The position numbers were made by a program, and so were the translations under genes. A DNA stretch of 64,000 nt from Patescibacteria group bacterium (lineage in GTDB: Bacteria > Patescibacteriota > Microgenomatia > PFEM01 > JAHIFH01). The notes below the pieces were generated by a model. That model saw only the letters and a list, made by a program, of their open reading frames with translations. It searched no databases and had not been told where the DNA came from. The DNA lies in NCBI GenBank assembly GCA_035529375.1, contig DATKWU010000009.1, forward strand, positions 19,092 through 83,091. Direction: 5' to 3'. Shown here piece after piece: positions 3,863 to 54,806 of this stretch. Position 1 is the first letter of the stretch. Every line of letters begins with the position of its first letter.

Positions 3863-4939
3863 TTAATTTTTAATTAGATTATGAAAAAGGCTGATATAGA
3901 TATCAGCTATATTAGCCCAACTGTATTTTTTTGCAGTCATTCTGGCTCTTTTTGCCATTTCTTCCCTTATCTCTGAGTGTCCCAATAATTTATCTATCAG
4001 TTGCGATAGCTGGCTTATATTCCCGTGTTCTACCACATAACCATTTTGACCATGCTTGATCATGAAGGACATTCCTACCTTATCGCTAACAATTGTGCTG
4101 GTTTCACTAGCCATTGCTTCAAGTGCAACTAGACCAAAAGACTCATATCTGCTAGGAAGAACAAACACATCCGTTCTTCTATAGGCGGATCTAAGCATTT
4201 TTTGATTAAATGGACCAGTAAAATATACTTTTTTTGAGAAATTATTTTCTGAAACCCAACTTTTTAGTTTTCTATCTTGGTCTTTAGGAGGGCCAATTAT
4301 ATAAAGTTTCCAGTTTTTAGTTTTAACTTTTTTTAAGGCCTTAAGTAGAAATAATAGATTTTTTACCTTTTTAGTACCACCAACGAAACTTATAACCTTT
4401 ACACCCCGACAATCATACTTATCAGAAAAAAGCTTTTTAGTAATCTCGTCATTCAAGAAAATATTCCCCACACCATGGGGGATAATATCTATTTTTTTTG
4501 GAGAAATGTTGTAATGGCTTGAGATGCTTAACTTCATAGATAAAGAAATTGTCACTATTTTGTCGGCAGTTTTTAAAATAAATCGCTCAATTATCTCTTT
4601 CCAAAATGGGTGACCTTCTCCCATTTGTCTTTCCAGAAAAATTAAACCATGGACAGTAACCTGAATCTTCTTGCGTCTTAAAAGCCCTACTATGGAAGAA
4701 AATAATATTGCAGGACTAAATCCGTGTAGTGAAAAAATATCTGCGTCAGAGTGAAAAGCTTCAAAAACAAAAAGAATCTTTTTTAAATATTTATTATAAT
4801 TTTTAAATTTTCTTGCAGGAATTGAAAGCTCTATTCCTTTATCCTCCCAGCTCTGTGTGAGGTTATAAATTACTCTCATCGGTCCTGTAAAAACTTGGTC
4901 TTTACTTTTGGGATATTGACCAATTATCATGACCTTCAT
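3863..4939 (-). CDS. Glycosyltransferase family 4 (GT-B)
   Basis: VFVLPSRYESFGLVALEAMASETSTIVSDKVGMSFMIKHGQNGYVVEH is the GT4 E-x7-E motif region. 358 aa. Has a 4-nt overlap with the downstream gene. Confidence 0.85.
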   Translation of the reverse strand: MKVMIIGQYPKSKDQVFTGPMRVIYNLTQSWEDKGIELSIPARKFKNYNKYLKKILFVFEAFHSDADIFSLHGFSPAILFSSIVGLLRRKKIQVTVHGLIFLERQMGEGHPFWKEIIERFILKTADKIVTISLSMKLSISSHYNISPKKIDIIPHGVGNIFLNDEITKKLFSDKYDCRGVKVISFVGGTKKVKNLLFLLKALKKVKTKNWKLYIIGPPKDQDRKLKSWVSENNFSKKVYFTGPFNQKMLRSAYRRTDVFVLPSRYESFGLVALEAMASETSTIVSDKVGMSFMIKHGQNGYVVEHGNISQLSQLIDKLLGHSEIREEMAKRARMTAKKYSWANIADIYISLFHNLIKN

Positions 4940-6480
4940 TTTCTTGATTTTTGTATGATTATGCTGAATAAATTGTAATTCTTCCCTAACCAGTTATTGA
5001 GCACGGCTGAGATATAAGACTTTTCAGCCCTGTATTTTTCTACTTTTATCTTCAGCTTTCTTCCCTTTAGAAAAGCCGTGAGGCTCTTGTAAATACCCTC
5101 TTTAGCATGAAAATCTGCCATTGTGTAATCTATTTGTCTTATTTCTTTGACTAGAGGGAAAACTCTGATTTTATAAATTAACCTGCCCACTAAAGATATT
5201 ATCCTTGTTAATAAAGAATCAGGGCTATTCTTCCCAAGGGGTTCGTGAGTTATATATATCACTCCCCCGTTTTTTAATTTATCTAGTGATTTTTCCAAGA
5301 CAGTACGGTAATCAGGCAAATGGTGCAAAACAGAACTAAAAGAAATAATGTCATACTTTTCAAAAGTGTCTTTTAGGAAGCTTTCTATGTCTTGATTTAT
5401 CATTTTTAAAAACTTATTTTTATCTGTCTTTTTTTTAAGCAGGGCTAACATTTTTTTTGATAAATCGAGGGCAGTAACATAACAGCCCTTTTTTAAGAAT
5501 TTTAAAGTTAGATTGCCAGTTCCACAGCCAACATCAAGAACAGACGGTTGATTAACCGAGACACTTTTTAAAATCAAATCTATATCTTTAATAACTCTCT
5601 TTTGTTCATATTTATTGAAAATCTCGGAGTGAATGAAATCATAGATTTCGGCTTCTTTTTCGTGAACCTTAATATTCTCTTTTAAAATTTTCTCACGCAG
5701 GCCAATTTTTTCTTTCTGGGCTGATACAGCCAGAGAATAACCATATCTAGATAATTTTGAATTTATCCTTGGTTCTATCTGACCGGTAGTTCTAACAAGA
5801 AGTTCTTTACAAAAATTAGGCAAAAGATAAGTCCACTGTCCCGGTATAAAACAGATGCCTTTTTTCTGTTTAACTTCAAAACCACTTTTCTTGAGAACCG
5901 ATACTACTTCGCCTTGCGTCTTCCAAACATCATAAGGATGTTTTTTTCCCACTTTTACTCCAAAAAAACCTAGTGATTTCCTAACAACTCCAAAAATATT
6001 CCTTGTTAAGCCATACATGCTTATTTTATTAGGGGTAGTAATAACAAACAGCCCATTCTTTTTTAAAACCCTTCTCATTTCTCTAATTGCCTTTCTCCAA
6101 TCAGGCATATGTTCTATTGTCTCGCTGCAGGAAACTTTATTAAAAGTGTTAGCTTTAAATGGAAGTTTGGTTGCGTCACCAGCGATAAACTCGACATTCT
6201 TCAAATTTTCCTTCTTGGCTTTTGCTTTAGCTGCTTTTATCATCCCCTCTGAAATATCAATCCCCACACACTTAGCTCCTTTTATAGAAAAAAGCTCAAT
6301 ATCTCTAGCATTACCACAACCAACATCTAAAATCAGCTCACCTTTGGAAGGATTAAGTAACTCCATCACTACCTTTTGCCTCATTTCTTGTTCATATTTC
6401 AGAATAGGATCACTTCTAATTCGAGTGTCTCTGCCGACGCTCATCTTGTCAAAAAAGTTTTTTATTACTCTCTCTTTCAT
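4936..6480 (-). CDS. Fusion of two class I SAM-dependent methyltransferase domains
   Basis: Domain 1 carries LDVGCGNARDIELF...VGIDISEGMIKAA...FNKVSCSETIEHMPD...LKKNGLFVITTPN (motifs I, II, post-II). Domain 2 carries VLDVGCGTGNLTLKFLKKGCYVTALDLSKKML...FSSVLHHLPD...LKNGGVIYITHEP. Both are Rossmann MTase signatures. Confidence 0.8.
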   Translation of the reverse strand: MKERVIKNFFDKMSVGRDTRIRSDPILKYEQEMRQKVVMELLNPSKGELILDVGCGNARDIELFSIKGAKCVGIDISEGMIKAAKAKAKKENLKNVEFIAGDATKLPFKANTFNKVSCSETIEHMPDWRKAIREMRRVLKKNGLFVITTPNKISMYGLTRNIFGVVRKSLGFFGVKVGKKHPYDVWKTQGEVVSVLKKSGFEVKQKKGICFIPGQWTYLLPNFCKELLVRTTGQIEPRINSKLSRYGYSLAVSAQKEKIGLREKILKENIKVHEKEAEIYDFIHSEIFNKYEQKRVIKDIDLILKSVSVNQPSVLDVGCGTGNLTLKFLKKGCYVTALDLSKKMLALLKKKTDKNKFLKMINQDIESFLKDTFEKYDIISFSSVLHHLPDYRTVLEKSLDKLKNGGVIYITHEPLGKNSPDSLLTRIISLVGRLIYKIRVFPLVKEIRQIDYTMADFHAKEGIYKSLTAFLKGRKLKIKVEKYRAEKSYISAVLNNWLGKNYNLFSIIIQKSRK

Positions 6481-6555: not shown

Positions 6556-8118
6556 ATGAAAAATAACCAAAATCCCAAAACGAATCATGGCGTCCCCATA
6601 ACAAACTACCAGGAGCTTGCGGTAATTGCTAAGGAAAGTACCATCTCTTTCTCAGGAAATATTTTGGGAAGAGGAATGGGGCTTATTATCACCTTACTTC
6701 TGGCTCGATTATTTGGCGCCACCCTTTTTGGTATTTATAGCCTGGGGCAGGTGATATTTAATTTTAGCGCTACCATAGCCTGTTTTGGCTTAAGTTACGG
6801 AGCGATAAGATTTGTTTCTACGAATCTGGCTAAAAAGGACCAAGCACGAGTAAAAGGCGCCCTGTTTGAGGTTTCGGTGATTCCGTTAGTTTTAGGAACT
6901 TTTATCGCCCTCATTCTTTACCTTGGCGCAGAAAAGATTGCCCTCCTTTATGGCAAGCCAGAGCTTTTTCGGCCCCTAAGATTATTCGCTTTTGGGGTTC
7001 CTTTTTTCTCTTTATTTCAAGCTTTAAGTAGCGCCACCAGGGGTTTTAAAACAACCAAATACACAGTTTTAGGCGAAAAAATAATTACTCCTTTCCTCAA
7101 TATTTGTTTGATTATTCTTTTTTATTACTTTGGCCTTAAAATATTTGGCATGATTGGAGCATATATTATGTCAATCATCTTCGGGGCTTTGTTTTTTCTC
7201 TCCTCCCTTAAAAAGCTCTTTCCTAAGATAGTTATGGGTGAACTGAAGCCAAAATTTAGGACAAGAAAAATCCTGAAAACCTCTATCCCCTTAACTTTAT
7301 CCTCTACTCTCTTCTTTTTGGTTGCCTGGACAGATATTTTTATGGTGGGATATTTTTTGCCTACAGTAGAGGTAGGTGTATACAGACTGACAACCTTACT
7401 TTCTTCTCAGGTAATAGTTTTTCTTTTAGCCATAAATGCCATTTTCACTCCATTTATTTCAGAATATCATCAAGGGAAGAAGATAAAAGAACTAGAAAGC
7501 TTATATAAGGTTGTCACCCGCTGGGCTTTTTATTTTGCTTCTTTAGTTTTTCTTATTATTGCTATCGCTCCAAGAGAATTACTGCAAGTTTTTGGTGAAA
7601 ACTATATTTTGGGAAAAAATAGCATGATAACTCTTGCGGCGGGCCACTTGATAAGTGCGGGGGTGGGATCGGTGGGGTTTATCTTGATTATGACTGGTTA
7701 TCAAAACTGGGAATTGATCAATTCGCTAATCTTATTTATATTGACTCTGGCTACAAACATTATCCTCATTCCCCGTTTTGGTATTATCGGCGCTGCTATT
7801 GCCACTGCTTTTTCAATTGGTCTTATTAATATCGTTCGTCTCATAGAAGTTTATAAGACCTTAAAAATTCAGCCCTTTAATCTAAAATACTTTGAAGGAA
7901 TATTGGCAGGAGTAGTAACTTTTTTATTGGTTTCGGGTTTGAAAAATTATTTATTTACCAATTTCCACTATCTTGTCAGCCTCATGTTATCTCTATTATT
8001 TGTCCTAACAACATTTTCCCTACTTCTGCTGATTTTCGGTTTGGAGAAAGAAGACAGAGTTATATTAAATAAAATAAAACACAAGCTATGGCAAGGAAAA
8101 TTTTGGTCATTGGTTTAG
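6556..8118 (+). CDS. Wzx-like oligosaccharide flippase (polysaccharide biosynthesis protein, MOP superfamily)
   Basis: 520 aa with about 14 TM helices and the typical PST-family N-terminus (KESTISFSGNILGRGMGLIITLLLARLFGATLFGIYSLGQ). Confidence 0.75.
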   Translation: MKNNQNPKTNHGVPITNYQELAVIAKESTISFSGNILGRGMGLIITLLLARLFGATLFGIYSLGQVIFNFSATIACFGLSYGAIRFVSTNLAKKDQARVKGALFEVSVIPLVLGTFIALILYLGAEKIALLYGKPELFRPLRLFAFGVPFFSLFQALSSATRGFKTTKYTVLGEKIITPFLNICLIILFYYFGLKIFGMIGAYIMSIIFGALFFLSSLKKLFPKIVMGELKPKFRTRKILKTSIPLTLSSTLFFLVAWTDIFMVGYFLPTVEVGVYRLTTLLSSQVIVFLLAINAIFTPFISEYHQGKKIKELESLYKVVTRWAFYFASLVFLIIAIAPRELLQVFGENYILGKNSMITLAAGHLISAGVGSVGFILIMTGYQNWELINSLILFILTLATNIILIPRFGIIGAAIATAFSIGLINIVRLIEVYKTLKIQPFNLKYFEGILAGVVTFLLVSGLKNYLFTNFHYLVSLMLSLLFVLTTFSLLLLIFGLEKEDRVILNKIKHKLWQGKFWSLV

Positions 8119-9743
8119 ACGGAATGCCTGAAAGCCTAATTAAAAAATTAGGCAAACAGGGTATTATCCCTAATTTGTATCGCCTCTATAAAAAGGGCGT
8201 GTTTGGTAGTTTGGAAAGCACTATGCCCCCTATCACCGCTCCTGCTTGGGTATCTTTCGCTACGGGGGTTAATCCTGGAAAACATGGTTGTTTCAATTTT
8301 CTCAAATTATCTAAAGGTTCACTCAGCGTTAATAGGGCTATCACTTCTCGAGATATTAAATCTCCAACCCTTTACGAGATTCTTAATCTTCAAGGAAAAA
8401 AATCTATTCTAATCAACCTTCCAGTTTCTTTTCCTCCTATAACCAATGACATAATTTTAACCAGCATAATGTCTCGAGGAGAAAACTTTATTTTTCCCCA
8501 GTCGCTAAAAAAGGAAATGCCCATTTTAAAAAAATATCGAGTTAGTCCAAATCCTGAGATTGCTGCTTATGGAAGCAGAGAAAAGTTTGCTACCGAGGTG
8601 AGAAGAATCGAAAAAATTAGGTTTGACTGTGCTAAGCAATTATTTCAGAAGAAGGAATGGGATTTTTTCTTTTTATTAATCAGTAGTCCTGATTGGATTC
8701 AGCACAAATGTTTCGATAGGCTTGTTTCGGGTAAAATTTCTAAAAATTCAGAGTCTTGTAATATCTATCAAGACATTGACAAATCTCTTGGTTGGTTTTT
8801 AGAGAATATCAAAGACGACACCTCTTTAATTATTATTTCCGACCACGGTTTTAAAGTCTATGAAGGCTTCTTTTATGTTAACGCCTGGCTCCATAAAGAG
8901 GGTTTGCTTCAACTTCAAAAAGTGCGCGAAGATTTTGTCGAGACTCCAATCAGCCGATTAGCCGAGGAAAAGAGTTTGGCTAAGAAAAAGAAGAAAAGAA
9001 TTAAAATCGAAAGGTTATATAATTTTTTAGTCCGCCACCCATTCCTGTTTCGCAAAATCACCCCCTCATATCGTTACATAAAATCATTATTGCCTTTTTA
9101 CTTTGACCTCTCGGCTACCCAGAGACCGGATATTCCCTCTTCCAAAGCAGTATCCATTTCTATTGGGGCTAACGACATATACTTTCATGATAAAAACCGT
9201 TTTTCCGATGGACTATTAAGCGCTGATGCATATAGAAGGTTGTTGAAGGAAGTAAAAACAGAGCTTAGTCAATTAAAATCTCCGCTATCTCGAGAGAAAC
9301 TGTTCAAAAAGGTTTTTGCTAAAGATGAAATCTATTCCGGCGACTATACCTCATTTGCTCCCGATTTATTGTTGGAAGAAAAATCTTTTAAAACCAGCAA
9401 AGAGACAAGGCCAGCAATATTCTCTATTCAAATAGTTAATAGTCACTCTCCAGATGGAATCTTTATCGGCTACGGTTCCGAGTTTGTGAAAGGCAAAAGA
9501 ATTAAAAATCTCAAAATTTTTGACATCGCTCCTTTAATTCTCCATCTATTAGATATTCCCATTCCTAAAAACATGGATGGCCGGATTAGAAGGGAGCTCT
9601 TTGATAAAGACAGCTTCATGGCTAAACGGGCCATTAAAACTCAAAGCTATAGAATTAAAAAAACATTCCCCAAAAAATATAAAGAGGGAAAGGAGGATAC
9701 AGAAGAGGTTAAAAGACGTCTAAAGACGCTTGGATATTTCTAG
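8088..9743 (+). CDS. Alkaline phosphatase superfamily protein (type I phosphodiesterase / nucleotide pyrophosphatase-like, PF01663-type)
   Basis: N-terminus ILVIGLDGMPESL...IPNLYRL...MPPITAPAWVSFATGVNPGKHG matches the metal-ligand/nucleophile region of the NPP/AP family. 551 aa. Tandem paralog of the next gene. Confidence 0.7.
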   Translation: MARKILVIGLDGMPESLIKKLGKQGIIPNLYRLYKKGVFGSLESTMPPITAPAWVSFATGVNPGKHGCFNFLKLSKGSLSVNRAITSRDIKSPTLYEILNLQGKKSILINLPVSFPPITNDIILTSIMSRGENFIFPQSLKKEMPILKKYRVSPNPEIAAYGSREKFATEVRRIEKIRFDCAKQLFQKKEWDFFFLLISSPDWIQHKCFDRLVSGKISKNSESCNIYQDIDKSLGWFLENIKDDTSLIIISDHGFKVYEGFFYVNAWLHKEGLLQLQKVREDFVETPISRLAEEKSLAKKKKKRIKIERLYNFLVRHPFLFRKITPSYRYIKSLLPFYFDLSATQRPDIPSSKAVSISIGANDIYFHDKNRFSDGLLSADAYRRLLKEVKTELSQLKSPLSREKLFKKVFAKDEIYSGDYTSFAPDLLLEEKSFKTSKETRPAIFSIQIVNSHSPDGIFIGYGSEFVKGKRIKNLKIFDIAPLILHLLDIPIPKNMDGRIRRELFDKDSFMAKRAIKTQSYRIKKTFPKKYKEGKEDTEEVKRRLKTLGYF

Positions 9744-11022
9744 ATTTAACATCACGATGGAAAAAAGAACAGTTATTATCGGCATTGATGGTGTCCCTTT
9801 TGGTTTGATGAACAATTTATCGGAAAAAGGGGTAATGCCTCATTTTAAAAAATTAAAAAATGAAGGTGTTTTTAAAAAAATGCGTTCTTCTATTCCACCC
9901 ATTTCGTCTATCTCCTGGATTTCAATTATTACTGGTAAAAATCCTGGTGAACATGGAATTTTTGGTTTTATGGAACTTATGCCTAAAACTTATACTCTTC
10001 ACTTTCCTAATTTTAATGATGTCCAAGAAAAACCCTTTTGGTTAAAAAAGAGGAATAAAAAATTTGCTATTATTAATGTTCCCTCCACTTATCCACCCAA
10101 ACCTCTTAATGGTATTCATCTCTCTGGTTTTATCTCCCTAGATTTAGAAAAAGCTGTTTACCCTCCTGAGCTCTTTCCTAAATTAAAAGAAATGAATTAC
10201 CAAGTCGATGTTGATTCGAGCCTAGCCCACCAATCAATGAGCCTTTTCCTTAAGAAACTGAACGAAACCCTTGAAGCTCGGATTGAAGCTTATCGTTATC
10301 TTTGGAAAAAAGAAGATTGGGATGTTTTTATGTTTGTTTTTACTGGTACTGATCGAATTGGCCATTTTCTCTGGGATGCTTATCGAAATAAAAATCATCA
10401 ATATCATGCCGATTTTCTTGATCATTTTAATAGAATCGATAAAGTGATTGGGGAGATTAGTAAAAAACTAAGAAAAGATGATTCTTTGTTTATGCTTTCT
10501 GATCATGGTATGGGAAAAATGAAAGCTAATGTTAATATTAATTATTTCCTAAAAAAAAGAGGTTTTTTAGATCTTGACAAAAATCTCAAAAGCTATAATC
10601 AGATTACTGAAAAAACCAAAGCTTTTGCCCTCGAGCCAGCTAGAATTTATATTCATCGACAAGGAAAGTATCCTCGAGGAAAAGTAAATAAATCACAAAG
10701 AGAAAAAATTACTAAACAATTAGTCGAGGCTTTTAACTCTCTAAAATACGAAAATCGAAAAGTAATTAAAAAGATTTATCATAAAGAAGAAATTTACCAA
10801 GGAAAATGTTTAAATCAAGCACCAGATCTGGTCCTGTTACCTCGATCTGGATTCCGCTTTCGAGCTAATATTGATAAAGAAACTCTTTTTGAAAAAGATG
10901 TTTTTTCTGGAGAACATACTTTAGATGATTCTTTCCTCTTTGTTAGAAGTCCGCAAATAAGAGATTTACCAGAAAATCTAACCGTAGAAGATTTTGTGCC
11001 TCTTTTAGAAAAAACTTTCTAG
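9730..11022 (+). CDS. Alkaline phosphatase superfamily protein (type I phosphodiesterase / nucleotide pyrophosphatase-like), paralog of the preceding gene
   Basis: VIIGIDGVPFGLM...MPHFKKL...IPPISSISWISIITGKNPGEHG carries the same signature as 8088..9743, plus a later DRIGHF histidine motif. 430 aa. Confidence 0.7.
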   Translation: MDISRFNITMEKRTVIIGIDGVPFGLMNNLSEKGVMPHFKKLKNEGVFKKMRSSIPPISSISWISIITGKNPGEHGIFGFMELMPKTYTLHFPNFNDVQEKPFWLKKRNKKFAIINVPSTYPPKPLNGIHLSGFISLDLEKAVYPPELFPKLKEMNYQVDVDSSLAHQSMSLFLKKLNETLEARIEAYRYLWKKEDWDVFMFVFTGTDRIGHFLWDAYRNKNHQYHADFLDHFNRIDKVIGEISKKLRKDDSLFMLSDHGMGKMKANVNINYFLKKRGFLDLDKNLKSYNQITEKTKAFALEPARIYIHRQGKYPRGKVNKSQREKITKQLVEAFNSLKYENRKVIKKIYHKEEIYQGKCLNQAPDLVLLPRSGFRFRANIDKETLFEKDVFSGEHTLDDSFLFVRSPQIRDLPENLTVEDFVPLLEKTF

Positions 11023-11062: not shown

Positions 11063-12628
11063 ATGGCCAAACAAATTAAAAAAACTAGAAAAAAAGTAAA
11101 AAAAATGAAGAGAACAACATTTGTTTGTCACAATAAAAACAAAACTTGTTGGAATTGCCCGGCGGCTATCTTTAAGGGTAATGTTGATTTCCGCGCTTGT
11201 GGTCAAGAAAAAAAGGTTGAAAGTTTAAGAGAAGATGGTCAAATCGTGATTGAATGTTCCCGAAGACCTAAACTTGGTCATTATGAACCCAATATTACCT
11301 TTGAACAATGTCCAGAATGGGAAAAAACGAAATATGGTTATCTTCTCAAAAATATGAGAGTGATGATCTTGGGTATTGATGGCTATTTGGGATGGACATT
11401 AGCCCTAAAATTAGGCAAATTAGGTTTTCAAGTAAGCGGAATTGACAACTATACGCGACGAGATTCTGTTATGGAGAGATGCGCCCACACAATTGTTCCT
11501 ATTGCTCGAATGACTAAACGTCTCAAGACAGCAAGAAAAGTATTAGGGATTGATATTAACTTCCGGAAAATGGATATTTGTGATATTGAAAATCTAAAAA
11601 TTTTCCTTGAAGAAGAAAAACCAGAGGCAATTGTTCACTACGCAGAAATCCCTTCAGCTCCGTATAGTATGATCGATGTTGATCATGCCATCCAAGTCCA
11701 AAAAAATAATGTTATTGGTACTCTGGGACTCCTATGGACAATGAAGGATATCGTCCCCAATGCTTCCTTGATTAAATTAGGTACTTTGGGAGAATATGGC
11801 GCCCCATTAACAGGCAGGCCTCTTTTCGAGGGCATGTTCCCGGCTGATGCGATTTTAAAATGGGATAACCGAGAATGGAGCCTTGGAGGTGAATTAACCC
11901 CTCGAGATCCAGTCAGCCTTTACCATGTCAGCAAAGTTCAAGATACTTTTAATGTCTATGAGGCTTGTAAATATTGGTGGCTTCGGTCTTATGACGTCAT
12001 GCAGGGAGTGATTTACGGCGTTCATACTCAAGAGGTCTCAGCTAACCCTAAACTCCGCACCCGGTTGGATATTGACGAATGGTTTGGAACAGTTGTCAAT
12101 AGATTTGTTGCTCAGGTTATTTTAGGCCTTCCTTTAACTATTTATGGCAGTGGCAGTCAAATAAGAGGAATGATTGCTTTAGAAGATGCCATGGAATGTA
12201 TGGTCCGGTTAATTGCTTCGCCGCCTGAGCCAGGTCAATACGCCGTTGTCAATCAAATTTCTGGCCTTCATAAAATAAGCGAATTGGCTGAAACAATTGC
12301 TGAAGTAGGTAGGAAAAAATTTGGTCTGAAAGCAAAAATTCAGAGATTGGAAAATCCTAGGGTTGAAACTGAAGAACACCCTTTTGAAGTTGTCTCCAGA
12401 AATCTTCCTCAATTAGGTTTCAAACCAAAAGTTAGTTTGGAAAAAGAAATTACCAGAATGTTTAAACTTTTAACCAAACGGGAGATTAAAGAAAGAATCA
12501 AGGCCAAAGCTCAACTAGTTTGGCCTAAAACAAGATGGTCAGGAGAAAAAAGAAAATCTGAAGTATTAGAGATATACAAGCCAGGAACTAAAAAAGTAAA
12601 AGGCTATAAAGGCAAACTAGATATCTAA
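11063..12628 (+). CDS. sqdB: UDP-sulfoquinovose synthase (SQD1/Agl3 family, SDR superfamily) with about 97-aa Cys-rich N-terminal extension; alternative start at 11354 (MRVMILG)
   Basis: Strong colinear matches to SQD1 motifs: MILGIDGYLGW (Rossmann GxxGxxG), HYAEIPSAPYSMID, NNVIGTL, KLGTLGEYGAP, VSLYHVSK (catalytic YxxxK), VMQGVIYGVHT, RTRLDIDEWFGTVVNRF, GLPLTIYGSGSQIRG, ENPRVETEEH. The N-terminal 97 aa (C22, C29, C32, C46, C65, C83) has no SQD1 counterpart. Confidence 0.85.
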   Translation: MAKQIKKTRKKVKKMKRTTFVCHNKNKTCWNCPAAIFKGNVDFRACGQEKKVESLREDGQIVIECSRRPKLGHYEPNITFEQCPEWEKTKYGYLLKNMRVMILGIDGYLGWTLALKLGKLGFQVSGIDNYTRRDSVMERCAHTIVPIARMTKRLKTARKVLGIDINFRKMDICDIENLKIFLEEEKPEAIVHYAEIPSAPYSMIDVDHAIQVQKNNVIGTLGLLWTMKDIVPNASLIKLGTLGEYGAPLTGRPLFEGMFPADAILKWDNREWSLGGELTPRDPVSLYHVSKVQDTFNVYEACKYWWLRSYDVMQGVIYGVHTQEVSANPKLRTRLDIDEWFGTVVNRFVAQVILGLPLTIYGSGSQIRGMIALEDAMECMVRLIASPPEPGQYAVVNQISGLHKISELAETIAEVGRKKFGLKAKIQRLENPRVETEEHPFEVVSRNLPQLGFKPKVSLEKEITRMFKLLTKREIKERIKAKAQLVWPKTRWSGEKRKSEVLEIYKPGTKKVKGYKGKLDI

Positions 12629-12632
12629 AAAA

Positions 12633-12944
12633 ATGGATATTTCTACTAGCGAATTCTCTAAAGAGGTCTTAGAATCAAAAACTCCTGTTTTGGTTGAATT
12701 TTGGGCTTCTTGGTGCCTTCCCTGCCAGACAGCCAATTCTTTGTTAGAAGAAATTAAAAAGGAATATAAAAAGAAAATAAAAGTTATTAAAATAAACCTT
12801 GATAAAAATCCAACTTTCTCATCTAAATATAATGTTAAAGGCTTACCCACTTTTATGATTTTTAAAAAAGGAAAGGAAAAAGAAAGAAAGATAGGCGCTC
12901 AATCAAAAGACAATCTTTGTCAAATGATTGAGAAATTTATTTAA
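12633..12944 (+). CDS. trxA: Thioredoxin with atypical WCLPC active site
   Basis: 103 aa. VLVEFWASWCLPCQ plus the downstream GLPTFMIFKKGKE (cis-Pro loop region) is the thioredoxin fold signature. The canonical WCGPC is replaced by WCLPC. Confidence 0.85.
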   Translation: MDISTSEFSKEVLESKTPVLVEFWASWCLPCQTANSLLEEIKKEYKKKIKVIKINLDKNPTFSSKYNVKGLPTFMIFKKGKEKERKIGAQSKDNLCQMIEKFI

Positions 12945-12947
12945 AAA

Positions 12948-13892
12948 ATGAAAATCTTAATTACCGGCGGCTGTGGTTTTATTGGTGTCAATTTAGTCAA
13001 TTATTTACTCAAAAAAACAAATTGGCAAATTAATGTTTTAGATAATCTTAGTATTGGCAAACTTAAAGATTTAAAGACGATTAGTAAAAATTCCAAAAAA
13101 AGAGTTAATTTTTTCAAAGGCGATATTAGAAACAAAAAGGATGTTGAAAAAGCAATAGTTAATTGTCATTACCTTGTCCATTTAGCTGCCCAAACTGGTG
13201 TTATCTCTTCTCAAAAAGATCCTTTTCAAGACGCTGAAATTAATATTTTTGGAACACTCAATCTGCTAGAAGCAAGTAGGAAAAAGGGGTTAGAAAAATT
13301 TATTTTTGCTTCATCTGCCGCTCCGTTAGGCGAACAACAACCACCTCTTGATGAAAAAAAAGTCCCTCAGCCCCTTGCTCCTTATGGAGCTAGTAAATTA
13401 GCTGGTGAAGGCTATTGCAGCGCCTACGCTGGTTCTTTTGGCCTAAAAACTACTGCTTTGAGATTCTCTAGCGCCTATGGTCCCTGGTCTTATCTAAAAG
13501 GAAGTGTTGTCGCTAAGTTTATTAAACAAATAATAAATAAAGAAGCCGTCACTATTTATGGGGATGGTGAGCAAACCCGAGACTTTGTTTATGTTGAGGA
13601 TATTTGTCAGGCTATTTATTTAAGTTTAACCAAGAAACTTACCAATAATTTTAATCTTTTCCAGATTGGAACAGGAAAAGAAACAACTGTTAATAAATTA
13701 TTTCAATTATTAGAAAAAGAATTCTCAAAAAGGAATTACAAGGTGATAAAACCTAAATATGAAAAATCAAGACCAGGTGAAATTAAAAAGAATTATACTA
13801 ATATCTCTAAAGCTAAAAAAATCCTCGATTATAAGCCTCAAACAGAACTTACTGAAGGAATTAAAAAAACGCTTGATTGGTTTCTAAAATAA
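12948..13892 (+). CDS. NAD-dependent nucleotide-sugar epimerase/dehydratase (GalE/UXS-like SDR)
   Basis: MKILITGGCGFIGVNLV (GxxGxxG), PYGASKLAGE (YxxxK), GDGEQTRDFVYVEDI are typical of extended SDR sugar epimerases. 314 aa. Confidence 0.85.
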   Translation: MKILITGGCGFIGVNLVNYLLKKTNWQINVLDNLSIGKLKDLKTISKNSKKRVNFFKGDIRNKKDVEKAIVNCHYLVHLAAQTGVISSQKDPFQDAEINIFGTLNLLEASRKKGLEKFIFASSAAPLGEQQPPLDEKKVPQPLAPYGASKLAGEGYCSAYAGSFGLKTTALRFSSAYGPWSYLKGSVVAKFIKQIINKEAVTIYGDGEQTRDFVYVEDICQAIYLSLTKKLTNNFNLFQIGTGKETTVNKLFQLLEKEFSKRNYKVIKPKYEKSRPGEIKKNYTNISKAKKILDYKPQTELTEGIKKTLDWFLK

Positions 13893-21072: not shown

Positions 21073-21917
21073 TAGGCTCTAGGAAATCTTAAAGCCGAGA
21101 AAAAAGAAAAAACAATTCCCTGAAAGCCATCAAGAATGCCTTTATGCCTAAAAAGAGTTAAGAAAAACCAATAAATTGGTTTGATCAAAAAGTAATTCAG
21201 GGATTGAATTGGATTCTTGCTTAATTTTTTTTCTTTAAATTCAGCGACAATCAAATTAATATATTTACTATTCCTTTGAAGATATTTTTTAAAGGTGGTG
21301 TCCGCATAATGAAGGAGATCATTTTGCAACCAACCAACCTTGCCTTTAATCACAATCTGTTCATGAACATCCTGACAAGGAAAGTGGGCTTTGCCATTCT
21401 TGACCAGCCGAATAACGCCATCAGGATAAACCCCGCCATAACGAAGATATTTACCTAGAAAATAATTTAATCGGGCCACAAAAAAGCCAGCGTATTCACC
21501 TTTATCTTGACCAATCCTTCCGTCTCTTTTTTCGACTATTCTTTGGTGTCTTAAAAACAATTCTCTCTTGGTAATTATTTTTTGGTACCTATTAATTTTT
21601 TTATCACTTAAAGAAGTAATCATTTTAATCTCTTTAGATAATGCCTCAGTTACTCTTTCATCCGCATCTAACTGTAAAATCCATTCTCCCTGGCAGGCTT
21701 CTAGAGCTTTTTGTTTATTGATGTGAAAGATAGGCGGATTATTAGTAATCGTTACCTTGGCTCCATATTCTTTAGCAATCTCAACCGTCTTATCTTGAGA
21801 AGAACCATCAACAATAATAATTTCATCAGCCAAATCTTTGACTAATTCAAGACATTCCCCTAGATTTTCTTCTTCATTATAGGTAGCCAAAGCAACTGAG
21901 ATTTTATCTTTTTTCAT
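21048..21917 (-). CDS. Glycosyltransferase family 2 (GT-A)
   Basis: ISVALATYNEEENL...IIIVDGSSQDKT...LQLDADERV covers the GT2 DxD/NEE region. 289 aa. Confidence 0.8.
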   Translation of the reverse strand: MKKDKISVALATYNEEENLGECLELVKDLADEIIIVDGSSQDKTVEIAKEYGAKVTITNNPPIFHINKQKALEACQGEWILQLDADERVTEALSKEIKMITSLSDKKINRYQKIITKRELFLRHQRIVEKRDGRIGQDKGEYAGFFVARLNYFLGKYLRYGGVYPDGVIRLVKNGKAHFPCQDVHEQIVIKGKVGWLQNDLLHYADTTFKKYLQRNSKYINLIVAEFKEKKLSKNPIQSLNYFLIKPIYWFFLTLFRHKGILDGFQGIVFSFFSALRFPRAYWRYLLKK

Positions 21918-26378: not shown

Positions 26379-26394
26379 TTTTCTAACTTCCTTT

Positions 26395-42823: not shown

Positions 42824-42840
42824 ATTTTAGCATAAAGCTA

Positions 42841-52533: not shown

Positions 52534-54088
52534 TAGGGTAAGAGTGGATCAATTTGTAAATTTTAATCCCTTTGACTTCCCACTCTTGGTCAATTTTAGA
52601 CCAACCAAAATTAGCGATTTCTGCTTGAGGATCAGTGGTCGGCTGACAAGGCAGTTTTTCGCAGACAACAAAAAGCTGGTCCGTAATCGTCTCTTCAGTT
52701 CTTAGGGGTTCGATTGCCGTTGGCGGTATCCCCCACTTCTCCATAAAAAAGGCATAAGCCGCCGCGTAATTTCTTTCGGCAATTAAACCAAGATTAAAAG
52801 GCTTGCCCTTGGCTTGACCAACGAGAAATTGGGCTATTTCCTGAGTCCTCCCTAATTGATTATTCGAAGCTCTTTTTAAAAGATTGTTTTGACAGGCTAA
52901 AGAGATAAGAAAAGTGAAAATAACGAAAAAAATAATTTTCCCGTAGATTTTTTTCTGCCAAGTTTGAGACAAAACCCAACCAACTAAAAGAAAAGGCGCG
53001 GGAAAGAAAAAGCCGAAATAATGATCATAGATATGCTGTTTGTAATTACCTAAACCAAACAAACCAACAATTAACCAAATTAAGATGAGAAACAGGGGTT
53101 TGTTTTCCTGCCAAATCTTTGACCAGTTTGGCTTTCTAGAATAACGATTAAAACTAAAACCAACTAATCCTAAAATTGTTAGAATTACCAGCCAACCACC
53201 ATAGGCTTCGTTTTTAGCGGCAATTAATCTTGTCCATACCTGTGAAGCTAAATTCCAGATTTGAGGAATAGCTTTATAAAACTTAAGATTAACGGTTGTC
53301 TGACGAACAGTGAAAAAGGCTTTAAAAGCCTTAAAATTAATAAAATTATGACGTAAATCAAACCAAGCTAAAGGAAGAATTGTCAGAACGCCAAAAATTA
53401 AAACACAGACCAGAGTGTAAAGAAACAAAGATTTTATTTTAGCCTTGTTTTTCAAGACGTCTTTTAAAGTTAAAAGCCAAAAGAAACTGACTGTCGGAAT
53501 TAAAAGTAAACCCAGATAATGAGATTGCAGGGCAAAGGATAAACCAAGACCAACAATCGGAATCCACCAAAATCTTTGTTTGAGCCAAAATTGATAAACA
53601 CCATAAATTGTTAGTAAAGCGAAAAAAGGCATAATATTAGGATTCCAAGAAGAACGAGAGTAAACAATGACCACCGGTGAAACCGCGTAGAGTAAGGCCG
53701 CAATTAAACCAGCTTGTTGATCAAACCATTCACGGCCGACCCACCAAACAAAACCGATAGTCACCACCCCTAAGAAAGCTACCATCGCACTCGGACCAAT
53801 TGGTGATAAACCAAAAAGAAAAAACCAAGGTAAGGCAAAATAATAATATAAAGGGCCAAGATACATATTACCAATGGAAGTCACCGGACCAATTAAAACA
53901 AACTTTCCGTTTCTAATCATCCTTAACCAAACAAGAGCGTCTCGACCTTCATCACCCAAAAAAGTCATGTACTCAGGGAGGCGATAAAAACGTAAAAAAG
54001 CACCAACCAGAAGAATCAGACTTAAAATGATGACTTCAGTCTGATTATTTTTAACAAACTTGACTATTTTCTTTTTAAATATCTTCAT
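52508..54088 (-). CDS. GT-C glycosyltransferase, ArnT/PMT-like
   Basis: 526 aa. The FLGDEGRDALVW acidic loop follows TM1 and is followed by about 12 TM. Confidence 0.7.
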   Translation of the reverse strand: MKIFKKKIVKFVKNNQTEVIILSLILLVGAFLRFYRLPEYMTFLGDEGRDALVWLRMIRNGKFVLIGPVTSIGNMYLGPLYYYFALPWFFLFGLSPIGPSAMVAFLGVVTIGFVWWVGREWFDQQAGLIAALLYAVSPVVIVYSRSSWNPNIMPFFALLTIYGVYQFWLKQRFWWIPIVGLGLSFALQSHYLGLLLIPTVSFFWLLTLKDVLKNKAKIKSLFLYTLVCVLIFGVLTILPLAWFDLRHNFINFKAFKAFFTVRQTTVNLKFYKAIPQIWNLASQVWTRLIAAKNEAYGGWLVILTILGLVGFSFNRYSRKPNWSKIWQENKPLFLILIWLIVGLFGLGNYKQHIYDHYFGFFFPAPFLLVGWVLSQTWQKKIYGKIIFFVIFTFLISLACQNNLLKRASNNQLGRTQEIAQFLVGQAKGKPFNLGLIAERNYAAAYAFFMEKWGIPPTAIEPLRTEETITDQLFVVCEKLPCQPTTDPQAEIANFGWSKIDQEWEVKGIKIYKLIHSYPNEEILEKK

Positions 54089-54806
54089 TTTTTAATTTCT
54101 TTAATTTTTTTCTTAATCTAAAAAGATCAGTCAAACCACCCAGAATCACTTTTAAGCTTGCTCCCGTGGCTTGGCCTTCTTGCCTGGGAAGATGACGGAC
54201 CCCTATTTCTACAATTTTGAAGCCCGCCTTTTTGGCTTTGATTAATAACTCACTGGTAATAAAAGGACCTCTTTCGGATTCAAGTGCCGGTATTTTTTCA
54301 ATTACTTCTTTTTTAATCATTTTAAAACCACAATCAATGTCTTTTACTTTTAAACCAAAAAGAAAATAAACCGCTGGTTGCCATAAATATTTTGACCCCC
54401 AAATCCGATAAAAAGGCACTTGGCGCTTCAGGTAATAACCAATTACCAAATCCGCCTTAGTTTCCTGTTGAGTTTTAATGAATTCTGTCACTTCACTAAA
54501 ATCAAACTGACCGTCACCATCAGTAAAAACAATCCAGGGATATTGAGAATGATAAAGACCGGATTTAAGCGCCGCCCCATAGCCACGATTGGGGGTGTGG
54601 GTAATCAAGCGAATACGGGATTCTTTTTTTATCAAGCTCCTAACAATCTCACCCGTCTTATCAGTTGAACCATCATCAATCACCATTACTTCCCATTTTT
54701 TGGCTACCTGGGGAATAATCTTAAGAGCTTTAGTGACGGTAGCCTCAATATTAGCTTCTTCATTGTAGGCCGGAAAGAAAACCGAAAGGGCGTCTAGCTT
54801 CTCCAT
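54075..54806 (-). CDS. GT2 polyprenyl-phosphate glycosyltransferase (DPM1/GtrB/ArnC-like)
   Basis: 243 aa. LSVFFPAYNEEANI...VMVIDDGSTDKT...IVFTDGDGQ. It is adjacent to, and overlaps, a GT-C gene. Confidence 0.75.
   Translation of the reverse strand: MEKLDALSVFFPAYNEEANIEATVTKALKIIPQVAKKWEVMVIDDGSTDKTGEIVRSLIKKESRIRLITHTPNRGYGAALKSGLYHSQYPWIVFTDGDGQFDFSEVTEFIKTQQETKADLVIGYYLKRQVPFYRIWGSKYLWQPAVYFLFGLKVKDIDCGFKMIKKEVIEKIPALESERGPFITSELLIKAKKAGFKIVEIGVRHLPRQEGQATGASLKVILGGLTDLFRLRKKLKKLKNEDI

Follow-up and report, generated by a model that had tools for sequence, protein, structure and literature searches.

A cysteine-rich long form of the UDP-sulfoquinovose synthase family and its AlkP-like and thioredoxin partners in a patescibacterial glycosylation island

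The locus and its SQD1-like protein

The window, i.e. the whole 64-kb stretch of patescibacterial DNA that was analyzed, holds a co-directional run of genes around an SQD1-like ORF. Its relevant features are the following.

6556..8118, + strand: Wzx-type flippase (Pfam Polysacc_synt/MatE), heading the co-directional run; context, not a conserved partner
8088..9743, + strand: second, divergent AlkP-superfamily paralogue, 551 aa, PF01663 116 bits, about 25% identical to the conserved partner
9757..11022, + strand: AlkP-superfamily (NPP/PhnA-type) enzyme, orthologue of the near-universal upstream partner of long-form genes
11063..12628, + strand: SQD1-like ORF, 521 aa
11063..11353, + strand: N-terminal extension of the SQD1-like protein, residues 1-97, with an orphan domain at about residues 23-97
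11354..12541, + strand: SQD1-like extended-SDR core, residues 98-493, with GxxGxxG NAD site, T241-[L/M]-G-E244-Y245 and Y287-H288-x-S-K291
12542..12628, + strand: long-form-specific conserved C-terminal tail (W492, G494, E503, Y505, P507, G508 and others); in the alignment, SQD1 stops near residue 493
12633..12944, + strand: thioredoxin, 103 aa, WCLPC active site, 4 nt past the SQD1-like stop
12948..13892, + strand: GalE-like epimerase, 314 aa
13981..15822, + strand: polyprenyl-phosphate-sugar-dependent GT-C (Pfam PMT_2, 47 bits), ending the co-directional run; context
54075..54806, - strand: the window GT2 closest to operon-linked AglJ/Dol-P-hexose-synthase-like GT2s, a candidate polyprenyl-phosphate sulfohexose synthase 40 kb off

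The three genes of the cassette proposed in the initial annotation, i.e. the SQD1-like, thioredoxin and epimerase ORFs, were found exactly as described, with gaps of 4 nt (12629-12632) and 3 nt (12945-12947), and the first translation contains the quoted motifs SAPYSMID, KLGTLGEYGAP, GLPLTIYGSGSQIRG and NPRVETEEH. An identical sequence has already been deposited as a Patescibacteria MAG protein. The glycosylation island said to surround these genes is present in the window, with Wzx flippases and PMT_2/GT87 GT-C, GT2 and GT4 glycosyltransferases, but it is not a conserved context, as Wzx, GT4 and PMT_2 each occur at no more than 12 of 80 related loci. Wzx homologues were seen at only 12 of the 80, and the PMT_2 GT-C is not conserved beside the relatives.

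SQD1 of Arabidopsis and SqdB of cyanobacteria and Rhodobacter are UDP-sulfoquinovose synthases (EC 3.13.1.1, PDB 1QRR/1I24). The ORF at 11063-12628 is a genuine SQD1/SqdB/Agl3 relative with an extended-SDR core. Residues 98-493 matched SQD1 1QRR/1I24 with an E value of about 1e-78 (phmmer, 2e-78 for 1QRR), and the NCBIfam UDP-sulfoquinovose synthase model was matched with an E value of 1e-124. When the AF2 model was searched with Foldseek, SQD1 ranked first (E = 5e-36, TM 0.86), with the GalE and RmlB matches at about 1e-17, some 18 orders of magnitude behind. Over the same residues the long form is 38% identical to reconstructed SQD1 by MAFFT and 35-36% identical to SQD1, its top structural match, in the Foldseek structural alignment. 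Profile and structure checks therefore agree with the family membership first proposed, and the catalytic Thr, Tyr, Lys and His are intact.

The catalytic site was judged by the equivalents of Thr145, Tyr182, Lys186 and His183 and by the [ST]MG...Yx3K fingerprint (PMC4388408; PMC8987622), with residues mapped onto the core from the Agl3 mutagenesis data (PMC4388408). As in SQD1 and SqdB, the GxxGxxG motif, all four equivalents and the T-M-G-E-Y fingerprint are present. The NAD site G104-x-x-G107-x-x-G110 is invariant, and T241-L-G-E-Y and Y287-H288-V-S-K291 are invariant across 70 long-form sequences, with Leu (in the window protein) or Met (in most clade members) at the position of Agl3 Met145. 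The alignment shows that the core carries every catalytic residue that oxidation, 5,6-dehydration and addition chemistry would need. Ala mutants of Agl3 are inactive at His95, Arg101 and Met145 (PMC4388408). His95 is kept as H192, and Glu147, Tyr148, Tyr182 and Lys186 of Agl3 are also conserved. In contrast to SQD1 and Agl3, all long forms have Pro (Pro197) in place of the essential Arg101. Because Pro also occurs in most short-form homologues, Arg at this position, kept only by SQD1, P0270 and P0358, is not family-defining. The protein scored 416 bits against NF041015, the equivalog built around Agl3 (cut-off 575 bits); the missed cut-off is uninformative because validated SQD1 also fails (485 bits), and eight other family members score 408-519.

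The plain SQD1/Agl3-type architecture that had been assigned did not hold. Instead of a single domain of about 380-400 aa, the protein has 521 aa and falls in a long-form clade of its own, marked by five Cys in an N-terminal domain. Compared with SQD1, the long form is extended by about 97 residues at the N terminus, where the five invariant Cys lie, and by a C-terminal tail; its family-specific loop of 40 residues preceding YHxSK is 9 residues longer. Agl3, the UDP-sulfoquinovose synthase serving the N-glycan of Sulfolobus acidocaldarius, has 393 aa and no Cys domain.

The long-form clade and its conserved gene partners

The five invariant Cys (C29, C32, C46, C65 and C83 in a 70-sequence alignment) lie in the motifs TCWNCPAA, F(R)ACGQ, IECxRR and FEQCPEW. 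The Lys-rich leader, residues 1-22, shows no conservation, and translation may therefore begin at Met15; all 80 genomic relatives align from about residue 23. The domain had no Pfam match and no significant match among PDB sequences (best E = 1.8), and it is missing from every short-form relative compared. AF2 confidence was low at residues 40-66 and the domain was not positioned relative to the active site. It could just bind structural Zn.

The long form is a tight, well-separated clade of the SQD1 family. Members come from more than 25 lineages of archaea and bacteria and are 62-83% identical, and the clade was monophyletic in an NJ tree. Clustering at 50% left one full-length representative at 860 bits, with the next full-length relatives at no more than 321 bits and aligned only from residue 98; a representative library of 1.8 billion proteins contained no intermediates between long and short forms. 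The system is not specific to Patescibacteria, as had been suggested, since the long form occurs in DPANN, Asgard, Bathyarchaeia, Thermoplasmatota, Chloroflexota, Omnitrophota and others. Judged by taxonomy, the hosts probably come mostly from sulfidic, anoxic habitats; unlike those of SQD1 and SqdB, they are non-photosynthetic, mostly anaerobic and uncultured. Some members carry an intein located in the catalytic motif, which together with the extreme cross-domain conservation marks the enzyme as under unusual selective constraint. The searchable literature held no earlier description of the long form or its operon. The Cys-rich N-terminal domain of about 97 residues, the upstream AlkP-like partner and the distinct clade common to many archaea had all been overlooked in the initial annotation.

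The gene order AlkP-like, long-form SQD1, thioredoxin, with overlapping or near-zero gaps, was found at 61 of 78 loci on each side. Corrected for truncation, the AlkP-like gene was present at 57 of the 62 long-form loci with enough flank vs 1 of 81 short-form controls (Fisher p = 2e-32), and the thioredoxin at 58 of 70 vs 0 of 81 (p = 1e-28). These counts show that the five-Cys domain, the AlkP-like gene and the thioredoxin are inherited together and only with the long-form clade. The thioredoxin of the proposed cassette, with its atypical WCLPC, is thus a genuine functional partner, but the conserved unit consists of the AlkP-like, long-form SQD1 and thioredoxin genes, and a cassette drawn at 11063-13892 leaves out the key upstream gene at 9757-11022. 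The genomic partners also differ from those of SQD1 and SqdB, for which sqdX/SQD2 would be the counterpart.

The AlkP-like ORF begins at TTG 9730 when called mechanically, and gene callers choose ATG 9757. Its product has about 420 aa, is cytoplasmic and stand-alone, and is annotated just as 'predicted AlkP superfamily phosphohydrolase/phosphomutase'; it carries the bimetal ligands and Ser/Thr nucleophile of NPP/PhnA enzymes and scores above the PF01663 cut-off. The nucleophile is Ser and there is no conserved Cys. Its closest structural relatives split P-O or P-C bonds, and its identity to NPP and to the phosphonoacetate hydrolase PhnA is only 14-19%. Unlike these enzymes, it is strictly linked to a sugar-nucleotide sulfonation enzyme and a thioredoxin, a linkage without earlier description. 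The 120 best homologues included no Rosetta-stone fusions. The operon provides a first functional context for a large family of uncharacterized proteins of that annotation and for an orphan Cys-rich domain.

The thioredoxin scored 110.8 bits against TIGR01068 (cut-off 96.8) and 102 bits against PF00085, and its best PDB matches were all thioredoxins (E = 2e-30). A thioredoxin lies immediately 3' of the long form at 61 of 78 loci, mostly overlapping or no more than 8 nt away, and the active-site motifs are atypical: WCPPC (31), WCTAC (14), WCIPC (6) and WCLPC (5). A role in supplying reduced sulfur, as first suggested, is plausible.

On the strength of sequence and gene-context comparisons, we tentatively regard the long form as a UDP-sulfohexose synthase, most likely for UDP-6-sulfoquinovose, that would form a module of three proteins together with the NPP/PhnA-like metalloenzyme encoded upstream and the thioredoxin encoded downstream, a reading to which we give slightly less than an even chance. 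It is improbable that the protein is instead an ordinary SQD1/Agl3-type synthase on a general sulfite pool, with a housekeeping or protective thioredoxin, an N-terminal Zn module and an unrelated AlkP-like neighbour. The fold and catalytic residues are indeed those of SQD1, the 411-416 bits against the UDP-sulfoquinovose synthase model fall in the range of validated SQD1 (485 bits) and the family, and the island offers plausible downstream glycosyltransferases. Yet such an enzyme would not account for a linkage of the AlkP-like and thioredoxin genes to the long form at about 83-92% of loci in two domains of life and essentially never to short forms, for five Cys invariant at 62-83% overall identity, or for the common overlaps of the translational-coupling type; a housekeeping thioredoxin would be expected to have WCGPC, whereas the partners have WCPPC, WCTAC or WC[ILV]PC.

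Sulfur supply and the destination of the product

SQD1 reportedly co-purifies with Fd-GOGAT, and the question of sulfite delivery is said to date from then. The Agl3 paper stated the in vivo route of sulfite to UDP-sulfoquinovose synthases to be unknown (PMC4388408). Sat or CysDN genes were found within 8 kb of 16 of 80 long-form loci vs 1 of 81 controls (p = 6e-5), sometimes joined by CysC and a DHH phosphoesterase; in a Saccharibacteria locus, L001, a CysD-like gene overlaps the start of the same operon. Sat, CysD and CysN were confirmed by NCBIfam above cut-off, a sulfotransferase and the DHH phosphoesterase were identified by Pfam, and CysC-like proteins by the P-loop motif only. Sulfate-activation genes lie near only 20% of the loci; the other 80% show none nearby, and the 64-kb window contained none. 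CPR genomes often have no sulfate-activation genes. No CysH-type reductase accompanied the long form, PAPS_reduct (PF01507) was absent from the annotated ORFs of the window, and CysD-family queries found nothing in the 64 kb by tblastn. At L086, a locus of the short form, the SQD1-like gene shares 4 nt with a PAPS_reduct gene, and a canonical thioredoxin-dependent sulfite generator therefore fills the equivalent slot there.

The same scaffold might serve a different chemistry: the Cys domain and thioredoxin would relay persulfides or disulfides and the enzyme would make something other than sulfoquinovose, or the reaction would stop at the 5,6-ene or 4-keto sugar. We consider this quite unlikely. 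In its favour, UDP-Glc-5,6-ene is known to be released by SQD1-family enzymes when sulfite is absent (PMC4388408), an invariant 40-residue loop peculiar to the long form lies over the active site, the Cys domain is of a redox type, the hosts appear by taxonomy to live mostly in sulfidic, anoxic habitats, and 80% of the loci are without nearby sulfate-activation genes. The significant enrichment of Sat, CysDN, CysC and DHH phosphoesterase beside the operon, however, points to oxidized sulfur as the input. The long form keeps His183 and the T-M-G-E-Y fingerprint seen in enzymes that use sulfite, and the same type of GT2 follows long and short forms.

The sulfate-activation genes at 16 of 80 loci and the GT2 type common to both forms lend indirect support to the predicted conversion of UDP-glucose and sulfite to UDP-6-sulfoquinovose. 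A polyprenyl-phosphate-type GT2 follows the core at 35 of 80 loci, which makes the lipid-linked glycan destination proposed initially plausible, and it is the same destination as presumed for the protein glycan of Agl3. Since the GT2s beside long forms are homologous to those beside short forms, the same kind of product can be argued. In the window, the GT2 at 54075..54806 is the best match for 23 of the 35 operon-linked GT2s at only about 27% identity, and is 33% identical (137 bits) to a GT2 adjoining a short form; its assignment as a polyprenyl-phosphate sulfohexose synthase is weak. The search for sqdX, which would have pointed to a plain SQDG lipid, gave no sqdX/SQD2 orthologue, as the window GT4s match control SqdX-like proteins only generically (no more than 75 bits, partial), and no SqdX-type cluster recurs beside long forms.

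The ORF at 12948-13892 was confirmed as the GalE-like SDR it had been taken for, and it is a recurrent accessory: about 20 of 78 loci (about 25%) have an orthologue within the next 1-3 genes downstream, at a median identity of 48%. Its best PDB matches are 4-epimerases acting on UDP-Glc, UDP-GlcNAc and UDP-GlcA, including the UDP-glucose 4-epimerase 4ZRM (E = 2e-60), WbpP, WbgU and UDP-GlcA 4-epimerase. By the fingerprints of PMC8987622 it has S-S-A-A-P and the Y-G-A-S-K triad without the [ST]DE or [ST]DK dehydratase pair, and it scored 155 bits against the galE equivalog, below the cut-off of 262. It is a candidate UDP-sulfoquinovose/UDP-sulfofucose 4-epimerase.

That the AlkP-like enzyme acts downstream, either by NPP-type cleavage of UDP-sulfohexose to sulfohexose-1-phosphate and UMP or by sulfosugar-phosphate transfer to an acceptor, with the thioredoxin and Cys domain only regulating the synthase by redox, has a low probability: it leaves unexplained why only the long form needs the enzyme when short forms feed the same GT2 type, hydrolysis of the preceding gene's product would compete with the following GT2, and the enrichment of sulfate-activation genes is unaccounted for.

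A possible on-site sulfonation route

In the three-protein module favoured above, S(IV) would be made on site, because the mostly anaerobic hosts probably have no free sulfite pool. The AlkP-like enzyme would handle activated sulfate (APS or PAPS), and the dedicated thioredoxin would donate two electrons to reduce the sulfuryl group on a Cys in the N-terminal domain, a step analogous to the S-sulfocysteine/thioredoxin step of APS/PAPS reductase or to the ArsC Cys relay. UDP-4-keto-glucose-5,6-ene in the adjacent SDR site would then capture the sulfite. The resulting UDP-sulfoquinovose may optionally be 4-epimerized to UDP-sulfofucose by the product of 12948-13892, and a GT2 would load the sulfosugar on polyprenyl phosphate; once flipped, it would be passed by the island GT-C to a glycan or glycoprotein on the surface of the Patescibacteria cell. 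The role of the AlkP-like protein in sulfur handling is the weakest link of the model, because of its Ser nucleophile, its lack of a conserved Cys and its P-O- and P-C-cleaving relatives; an NPP-type attack on APS would free sulfate rather than reduce it.

The proposed logic resembles that of CysH-type APS/PAPS reductases, in which activated sulfate and reduced thioredoxin give sulfite by way of a Cys-bound intermediate; a dedicated thioredoxin partner is present, and CysH holds the equivalent operon slot in L086. In contrast to CysH, no PAPS_reduct domain occurs in the window or beside long forms save in CysD-like ATP-sulfurylase subunits, and the NPP/PhnA-like enzyme and orphan Cys domain have an unrelated fold, so that the likeness would be one of function.

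It is possible, though rather unlikely, that the AlkP/NPP-like enzyme, the five-Cys domain and the thioredoxin form a CysH-independent machine that reduces activated sulfate, or another oxidized donor, to enzyme-bound sulfite channelled into a C-S bond on a nucleotide sugar, with '...RLKxLGY[LIMF]' tails as docking signals for a sulfonation metabolon. If so, it would be the first defined answer to the in vivo sulfur source of UDP-sulfoquinovose synthases, and sulfonated surface glycans would be widespread in DPANN, Asgard, Bathyarchaeia and CPR. Small and genetically defined, the three-protein operon allows a direct test of sulfite delivery to the synthase. It suggests that surface glycans in these four groups, which are among the least explored lineages, commonly contain sulfoquinovose and perhaps sulfofucose; no biosynthetic pathway to sulfofucose is known (PMC12421959). 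Such sugars would have consequences for host-symbiont recognition and anaerobic organosulfonate cycling. The C-terminal '...RLKxLGY[LIMF]' tails are shared by CysD, CysC, thioredoxin, RHH and AlkP-paralogue proteins, and the paralogue at 8088..9743 of the window ends in ...EEVKRRLKTLGYF, a tail common to sulfur-pathway proteins of related loci.

The SQD1-like operon and the anatomy of its protein

Positions 11063-13892 of the window had been read in the initial annotation as a UDP-sulfoquinovose (UDP-SQ) synthase of the SQD1/Agl3 type followed by a thioredoxin (Trx) and an epimerase, all inside a glycosylation island. The three ORFs, the quoted motifs, the WCLPC site and the spacing between the genes are all present in the ORFs and translations as claimed. 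The island was likewise found around the operon, with Wzx flippases, many PMT_2/GT87 GT-C transferases, GT2, GT4, methyltransferases and YfhO.

Genes of the operon and its upstream flank in the window
8088-9743, divergent AlkP paralogue, about 25 % identity
9757-11022, AlkP-like partner orthologue, median 48 % identity to the partner family
11063-12628, + strand, long SQD1-like ORF, 521 aa
12633-12944, + strand, thioredoxin ORF, 103 aa, 4 nt after the SQD1-like ORF
12948-13892, + strand, GalE-like SDR ORF, 314 aa, 3 nt after the thioredoxin ORF

Residues 98-493 of ORF 11063-12628 align with Arabidopsis SQD1 (PDB 1QRR/1I24) at an E of about 1e-78. A Foldseek search with its AlphaFold model (pLDDT 76.8) returned SQD1 as by far the best solved match (E = 5e-36, TM 0.86), the next being GalE and RmlB at about 1e-17. 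The NCBIfam model for UDP-sulfoquinovose synthase matched with E = 1e-124. The score of 416 bits lies under the cut-off of 575, a shortfall that is uninformative because the validated SQD1, at 485 bits, fails the same cut-off, and it was dropped as evidence against a UDP-SQ synthase. The thioredoxin scored above the TIGR01068 cut-off. The supposed epimerase is a GalE-like SDR whose top solved relatives are all 4-epimerases (4ZRM, E = 2e-60), and it is without the [ST]DE dyad that denotes dehydratases in an SDR fingerprint list (PMC8987622). A protein identical to ORF 11063-12628 has been deposited from a Patescibacteria MAG (406-kb contig). Proteins of this long form are annotated as 'UDP-sulfoquinovose synthase' at JGI and as generic epimerase/dehydratase at NCBI.

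The SDR core keeps GxxGxxG, and SQD1 Thr145, Tyr182, His183 and Lys186 correspond to T241, Y287, H288 and K291. Compared with Agl3, the long form retains the essential His95 and Met145 (Met or Leu) and the important Glu147 and Tyr148, whereas the essential Arg101 is replaced by Pro. The substitution is non-diagnostic because most short-form homologues, the SQD1/SqdB/Agl3 relatives with no N-terminal Cys domain, carry Pro as well, and it was dropped as a sign of altered sulfite chemistry. In its fold and its catalytic residues the long form belongs to the SQD1/SqdB/Agl3 homologous family, and its predicted activity is that of a UDP-SQ synthase. With no SqdX orthologue found, nothing points to a plain SQDG lipid role.

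The long form has three features of its own: the Cys domain, the loop before YHxSK and a conserved C-terminal tail. Nothing in SQD1 or Agl3 corresponds to residues 1-97. Invariant positions were read from an alignment of 70 long-form sequences, in which C29, C32, C46, C65 and C83 are all invariant, held in the motifs TCWNCPAA, F(R)ACGQ, IECxRR and FEQCPEW and flanked by an invariant Arg67 and a near-invariant Arg68. The loop before YHxSK, also invariant, has 40 residues as compared with 31 in SQD1. Profile searches with the Cys domain gave no Pfam match and, against PDB sequences, a best E of 1.8. In the AF2 model residues 40-66 and the active-site loops have a pLDDT below 50, too low for placing the Cys domain against the active site. 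Of the SQD1/Agl3-type label, the fold and the catalytic residues stood and the usual single-domain architecture did not; the long form is a separate clade.

Ahead of the conserved domain, the ORF begins with a Lys-rich leader, MAKQIKKTRKKVKKMKRTTFV (window 11063-11128), which is absent from relatives and has no obvious Shine-Dalgarno sequence; the true start may be Met15, at position 11105. Scans of the window for tRNA and Rfam families gave zero matches, and promoter and terminator scans of window 6-17 kb came out at the level of shuffled sequence and carry no information.

Distribution of the long form and its conserved neighbours

A database search with ORF 11063-12628 returned more than 6000 homologues. 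The best 120 of these are about 505 aa long and share 69-83 % identity over about 96 % of the query, N-terminal extension included; their hosts are Patescibacteria, Thermoplasmatota, Woesearchaeota, Diapherotrites and Asgard archaea. When one genome was scanned for each GTDB species, 187 relatives came up; the 80 loci kept have 62-78 % identity and a match that always starts at about residue 23. The archaeal hosts of these loci are Thermoplasmatota, Aenigmatarchaeota, Woesearchaeota, Iainarchaeota, Altiarchaeales, Bathyarchaeia, Hadarchaeota, Theionarchaea and Hydrothermarchaeales, together with the Asgard lineages Helarchaeota and Borrarchaeum. The bacterial hosts are Saccharibacteria, Armatimonadota, Chloroflexota, Omnitrophota, Aminicenantes, Fibrobacterota, Lentisphaerae, Spirochaetes, Thermodesulfobacteriota, Krumholzibacteria and Ratteibacteria. 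In a representative library of 1.84 billion proteins clustered at 50 % identity, the long form is reduced to a single full-length entry (860 bits), along with fragments and an intein version; the next behind it at full length have 375-416 aa, reach at most 321 bits and align only from residue 98. Phylogenetic placement in an NJ tree showed the long form to be monophyletic, with very short internal branches, and nested among the short forms. Full-text literature searches on the clade, its partners, sulfoquinovose in CPR/Patescibacteria and COG3379 found no relevant description.

Inteins are frequent across the SQD1-like family, in long and short forms alike. Some long forms reach about 850 aa through an intein between the His and Ser of the catalytic Y-H-x-S-K, as in homologue P0013; P0062, P0096 and P0117 also bear inteins, those of P0013 and P0117 being of the LAGLIDADG type (Pfam PF14528). 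No other fusion was seen among the 120 best long-form homologues. Short forms P0254-P0275 and others have 714-1164 aa with 2-3 matched stretches each, a pattern which suggests that many 700-1160-aa short-form representatives contain one or two inteins.

ORFs were called in the 80 long-form loci, clustered de novo and compared with the window. Glycosylation genes are not the recurring neighbours, as Wzx, GT4 and PMT_2 each occur in 12 loci or fewer. An AlkP-superfamily gene lies directly upstream on the same strand in 69 of the 80 loci, and a thioredoxin directly downstream on the same strand in 62. Intergenic distances within this trio are mostly -20 to +8 nt, with adjacency in 61 of 78 loci on each side. 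Where flanking DNA was sufficient, the AlkP-like gene was found at 57/62 loci, Trx at 58/70 and both at 43/58, the Trx count being an underestimate because an antisense ORF was sometimes called at its position. The control set consisted of 80 metagenome short-form loci plus the short-form locus L086 (81 loci, 693 kb). The metagenome loci are largely soil short forms of the Arg type rather than the Pro-type nearest the long clade. The set stands for short forms generally and is not phylogenetically matched; it held an AlkP-like homologue at one locus (Fisher, p = 2e-32) and an operon-type Trx at none (p = 1e-28). Both partners were also absent from four short-form loci among those nearest the long clade, which were inspected singly. 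The linkage in long forms and the absence in controls therefore identify the Cys domain, the AlkP-like enzyme and the thioredoxin as a co-inherited trio. The long-form module is real, with robust statistics behind it, and holds more interest than a common sqdB gene, in part for reasons other than those of the initial annotation.

Sulfur genes and a proposed route to sulfite

The AlkP-like partner is a cytoplasmic, stand-alone protein of about 420 aa, known in databases only as 'alkaline phosphatase family protein' or 'predicted AlkP superfamily phosphohydrolase/phosphomutase', and its AF2 model has a pLDDT of 95.6. All bimetal ligands and the Ser nucleophile are at least 95 % conserved, and a conserved Cys is absent. 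A Cys or formylglycine nucleophile was rejected, the nucleophile being the invariant Ser. No fusions were seen among the 120 best AlkP-like homologues. A role as pAp phosphatase is disfavoured: loci with Sat and CysC have a separate DHH phosphoesterase.

Accessory genes were checked by profile unless stated otherwise. An AglJ/dolichyl-phosphate-hexose-synthase-like GT2 occurs at 35 of the 80 long-form loci, usually directly after Trx. It is homologous (33-38 %) to the membrane-anchored GT2 beside 17 of the 81 short forms, which argues that long and short forms deliver the same kind of nucleotide sugar. Orthologues of the GalE-like SDR of the window were found at about 20 of 78 loci. Also present are a sulfotransferase, a sugar-1-phosphate nucleotidylyltransferase, a TrmB-type regulator, a 75-aa RHH-like protein, a DHH/DHHA1 phosphoesterase (candidate pAp phosphatase), an APS kinase (CysC)-like protein called from its P-loop motif only and a phosphohexomutase-like protein called by sequence inspection only. 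Sulfate adenylyltransferase, as Sat or as CysD with CysN, lies within 8 kb at 16/80 long-form loci versus 1/81 controls. At L001 (Saccharibacteria) a CysD-like gene with no CysN overlaps the start of the AlkP, long SQD1-like, Trx and SDR operon. Beside the long forms in the 80 loci no stand-alone APS/PAPS reductase of the CysH type was seen, and the recurrent oxidised-sulfur genes go no further than APS or PAPS. The short-form locus L086, by contrast, does have a PAPS_reduct gene, in a 4-nt overlap with the SQD1-like gene. The 64-kb window has no Sat, CysDN, CysC, CysH, sulfotransferase or UDP-Glc-supply gene.

C-S bond formation on UDP-4-keto-glucose-5,6-ene requires S(IV), and a dedicated thioredoxin in a tightly coupled operon is usually the stoichiometric reductant of its neighbour (CysH, ArsC, Msr, NrdH). 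On the most economical reading, activated sulfate would undergo a Trx-dependent reduction that the trio carries out or helps along, and the SDR site would receive the sulfite from it. The invariant cysteines, with Arg67 and Arg68 alongside, could serve as carriers of an S-sulfo intermediate, or as a redox or metal centre. Candidate roles of the AlkP-like enzyme are nucleotide-donor binding, sulfuryl transfer and by-product removal. Its part is the weakest step of the model because relatives of the enzyme attack phosphorus; action of the AlkP-like enzyme downstream instead is an unlikely alternative to its place in sulfite supply. The GT2 would make polyprenyl-P-sulfohexose for the flippases and GT-C transferases of the island. 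The GalE-like SDR may interconvert UDP-SQ and UDP-sulfofucose, or may just supply UDP-Glc. Sulfofucose, the C4 epimer, occurs in the N-glycan of Thermoplasma; its biosynthetic route is not known (PMC12421959).

A different nucleophile or product would suit the loci with no sulfate-activation genes nearby, whereas the shared GT2 type points to the same kind of sugar, and we consider such a change improbable. A plain SQD1 would agree with the fold and the catalytic residues, and would leave the co-inherited partners aside; its probability is similarly low. The model in which the trio makes or delivers sulfite by Trx-dependent reduction of activated sulfate for UDP-sulfohexose synthesis has the better prospects, falling a little short of probable. 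The module may work like CysH with Trx, although it does not belong to the CysH family. The chance that it hides a new sulfite-generating and channelling mechanism is credible but still on the doubtful side.

A shared C-terminal tail and other genes

At long-form loci, 26 of 1027 ORFs end in an acidic stretch and then '...EExxIxxRLKxLGY[LIMF]'; among control ORFs 1 of 634 does. The carriers are 9/9 CysD-like proteins, 9/11 75-aa RHH-like proteins, four extended thioredoxins, one CysC, two members of the AlkP cluster and one unclustered 84-aa ORF; examples are L019 9531-9935, L020 9864-10091 and L050 16313-16846, all long-form loci. The AlkP paralogue at window 8088-9743 ends with the same tail (...VKRRLKTLGYF, window 9644-9743). 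The tail looks like a docking motif that would bring proteins of the sulfur pathway to one shared hub. L001 2536-3375 and L002 6368-7213 (Hydrothermarchaeales) encode a divergent PAPS_reduct/CysD-like protein of about 280 aa with no CysN GTPase, which might be an ATP sulfurylase subunit acting alone or some other protein.

At L086 (metagenome contig ERR10503181_64183, 6001-7763) the short-form gene is translationally coupled to a CysH-type PAPS reductase, amid small unannotated ORFs, GT2s and a 962-aa protein. The short form of L084 adjoins ThyX and an RNase T-like exonuclease. Both contigs may be viral, with sulfosugar synthesis as auxiliary metabolic genes.

The density of polyprenyl-phosphate-sugar-dependent transferases in the window is exceptional for a small CPR genome. 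Back-to-back tandem arrays of GT-C-sized paralogues, about 500-565 aa each, occupy 23059-28092 (-) and 39652-48581 (-). PMT_2/PMT was confirmed for the three ORFs of the former; in the latter, ORF 39652-41346 has no Pfam match, 41324-42823 is a Wzx/MurJ-type flippase and 43623-48581 is GT-C-sized by length alone. GT87 genes also lie at 28729-29985 and 34801-36072, and YfhO at 32391-34808. Among the glycosyltransferases, the gene at 21914-23062 (-) encodes a small GTPase domain (MMR_HSR1/FeoB_N-like) fused, unusually, to a SIS sugar-phosphate isomerase domain. The 514-aa protein at 4936-6480 (-), with two tandem class-I SAM methyltransferase domains, adjoins the flippase heading the operon run and is possibly a glycan O-methyltransferase.
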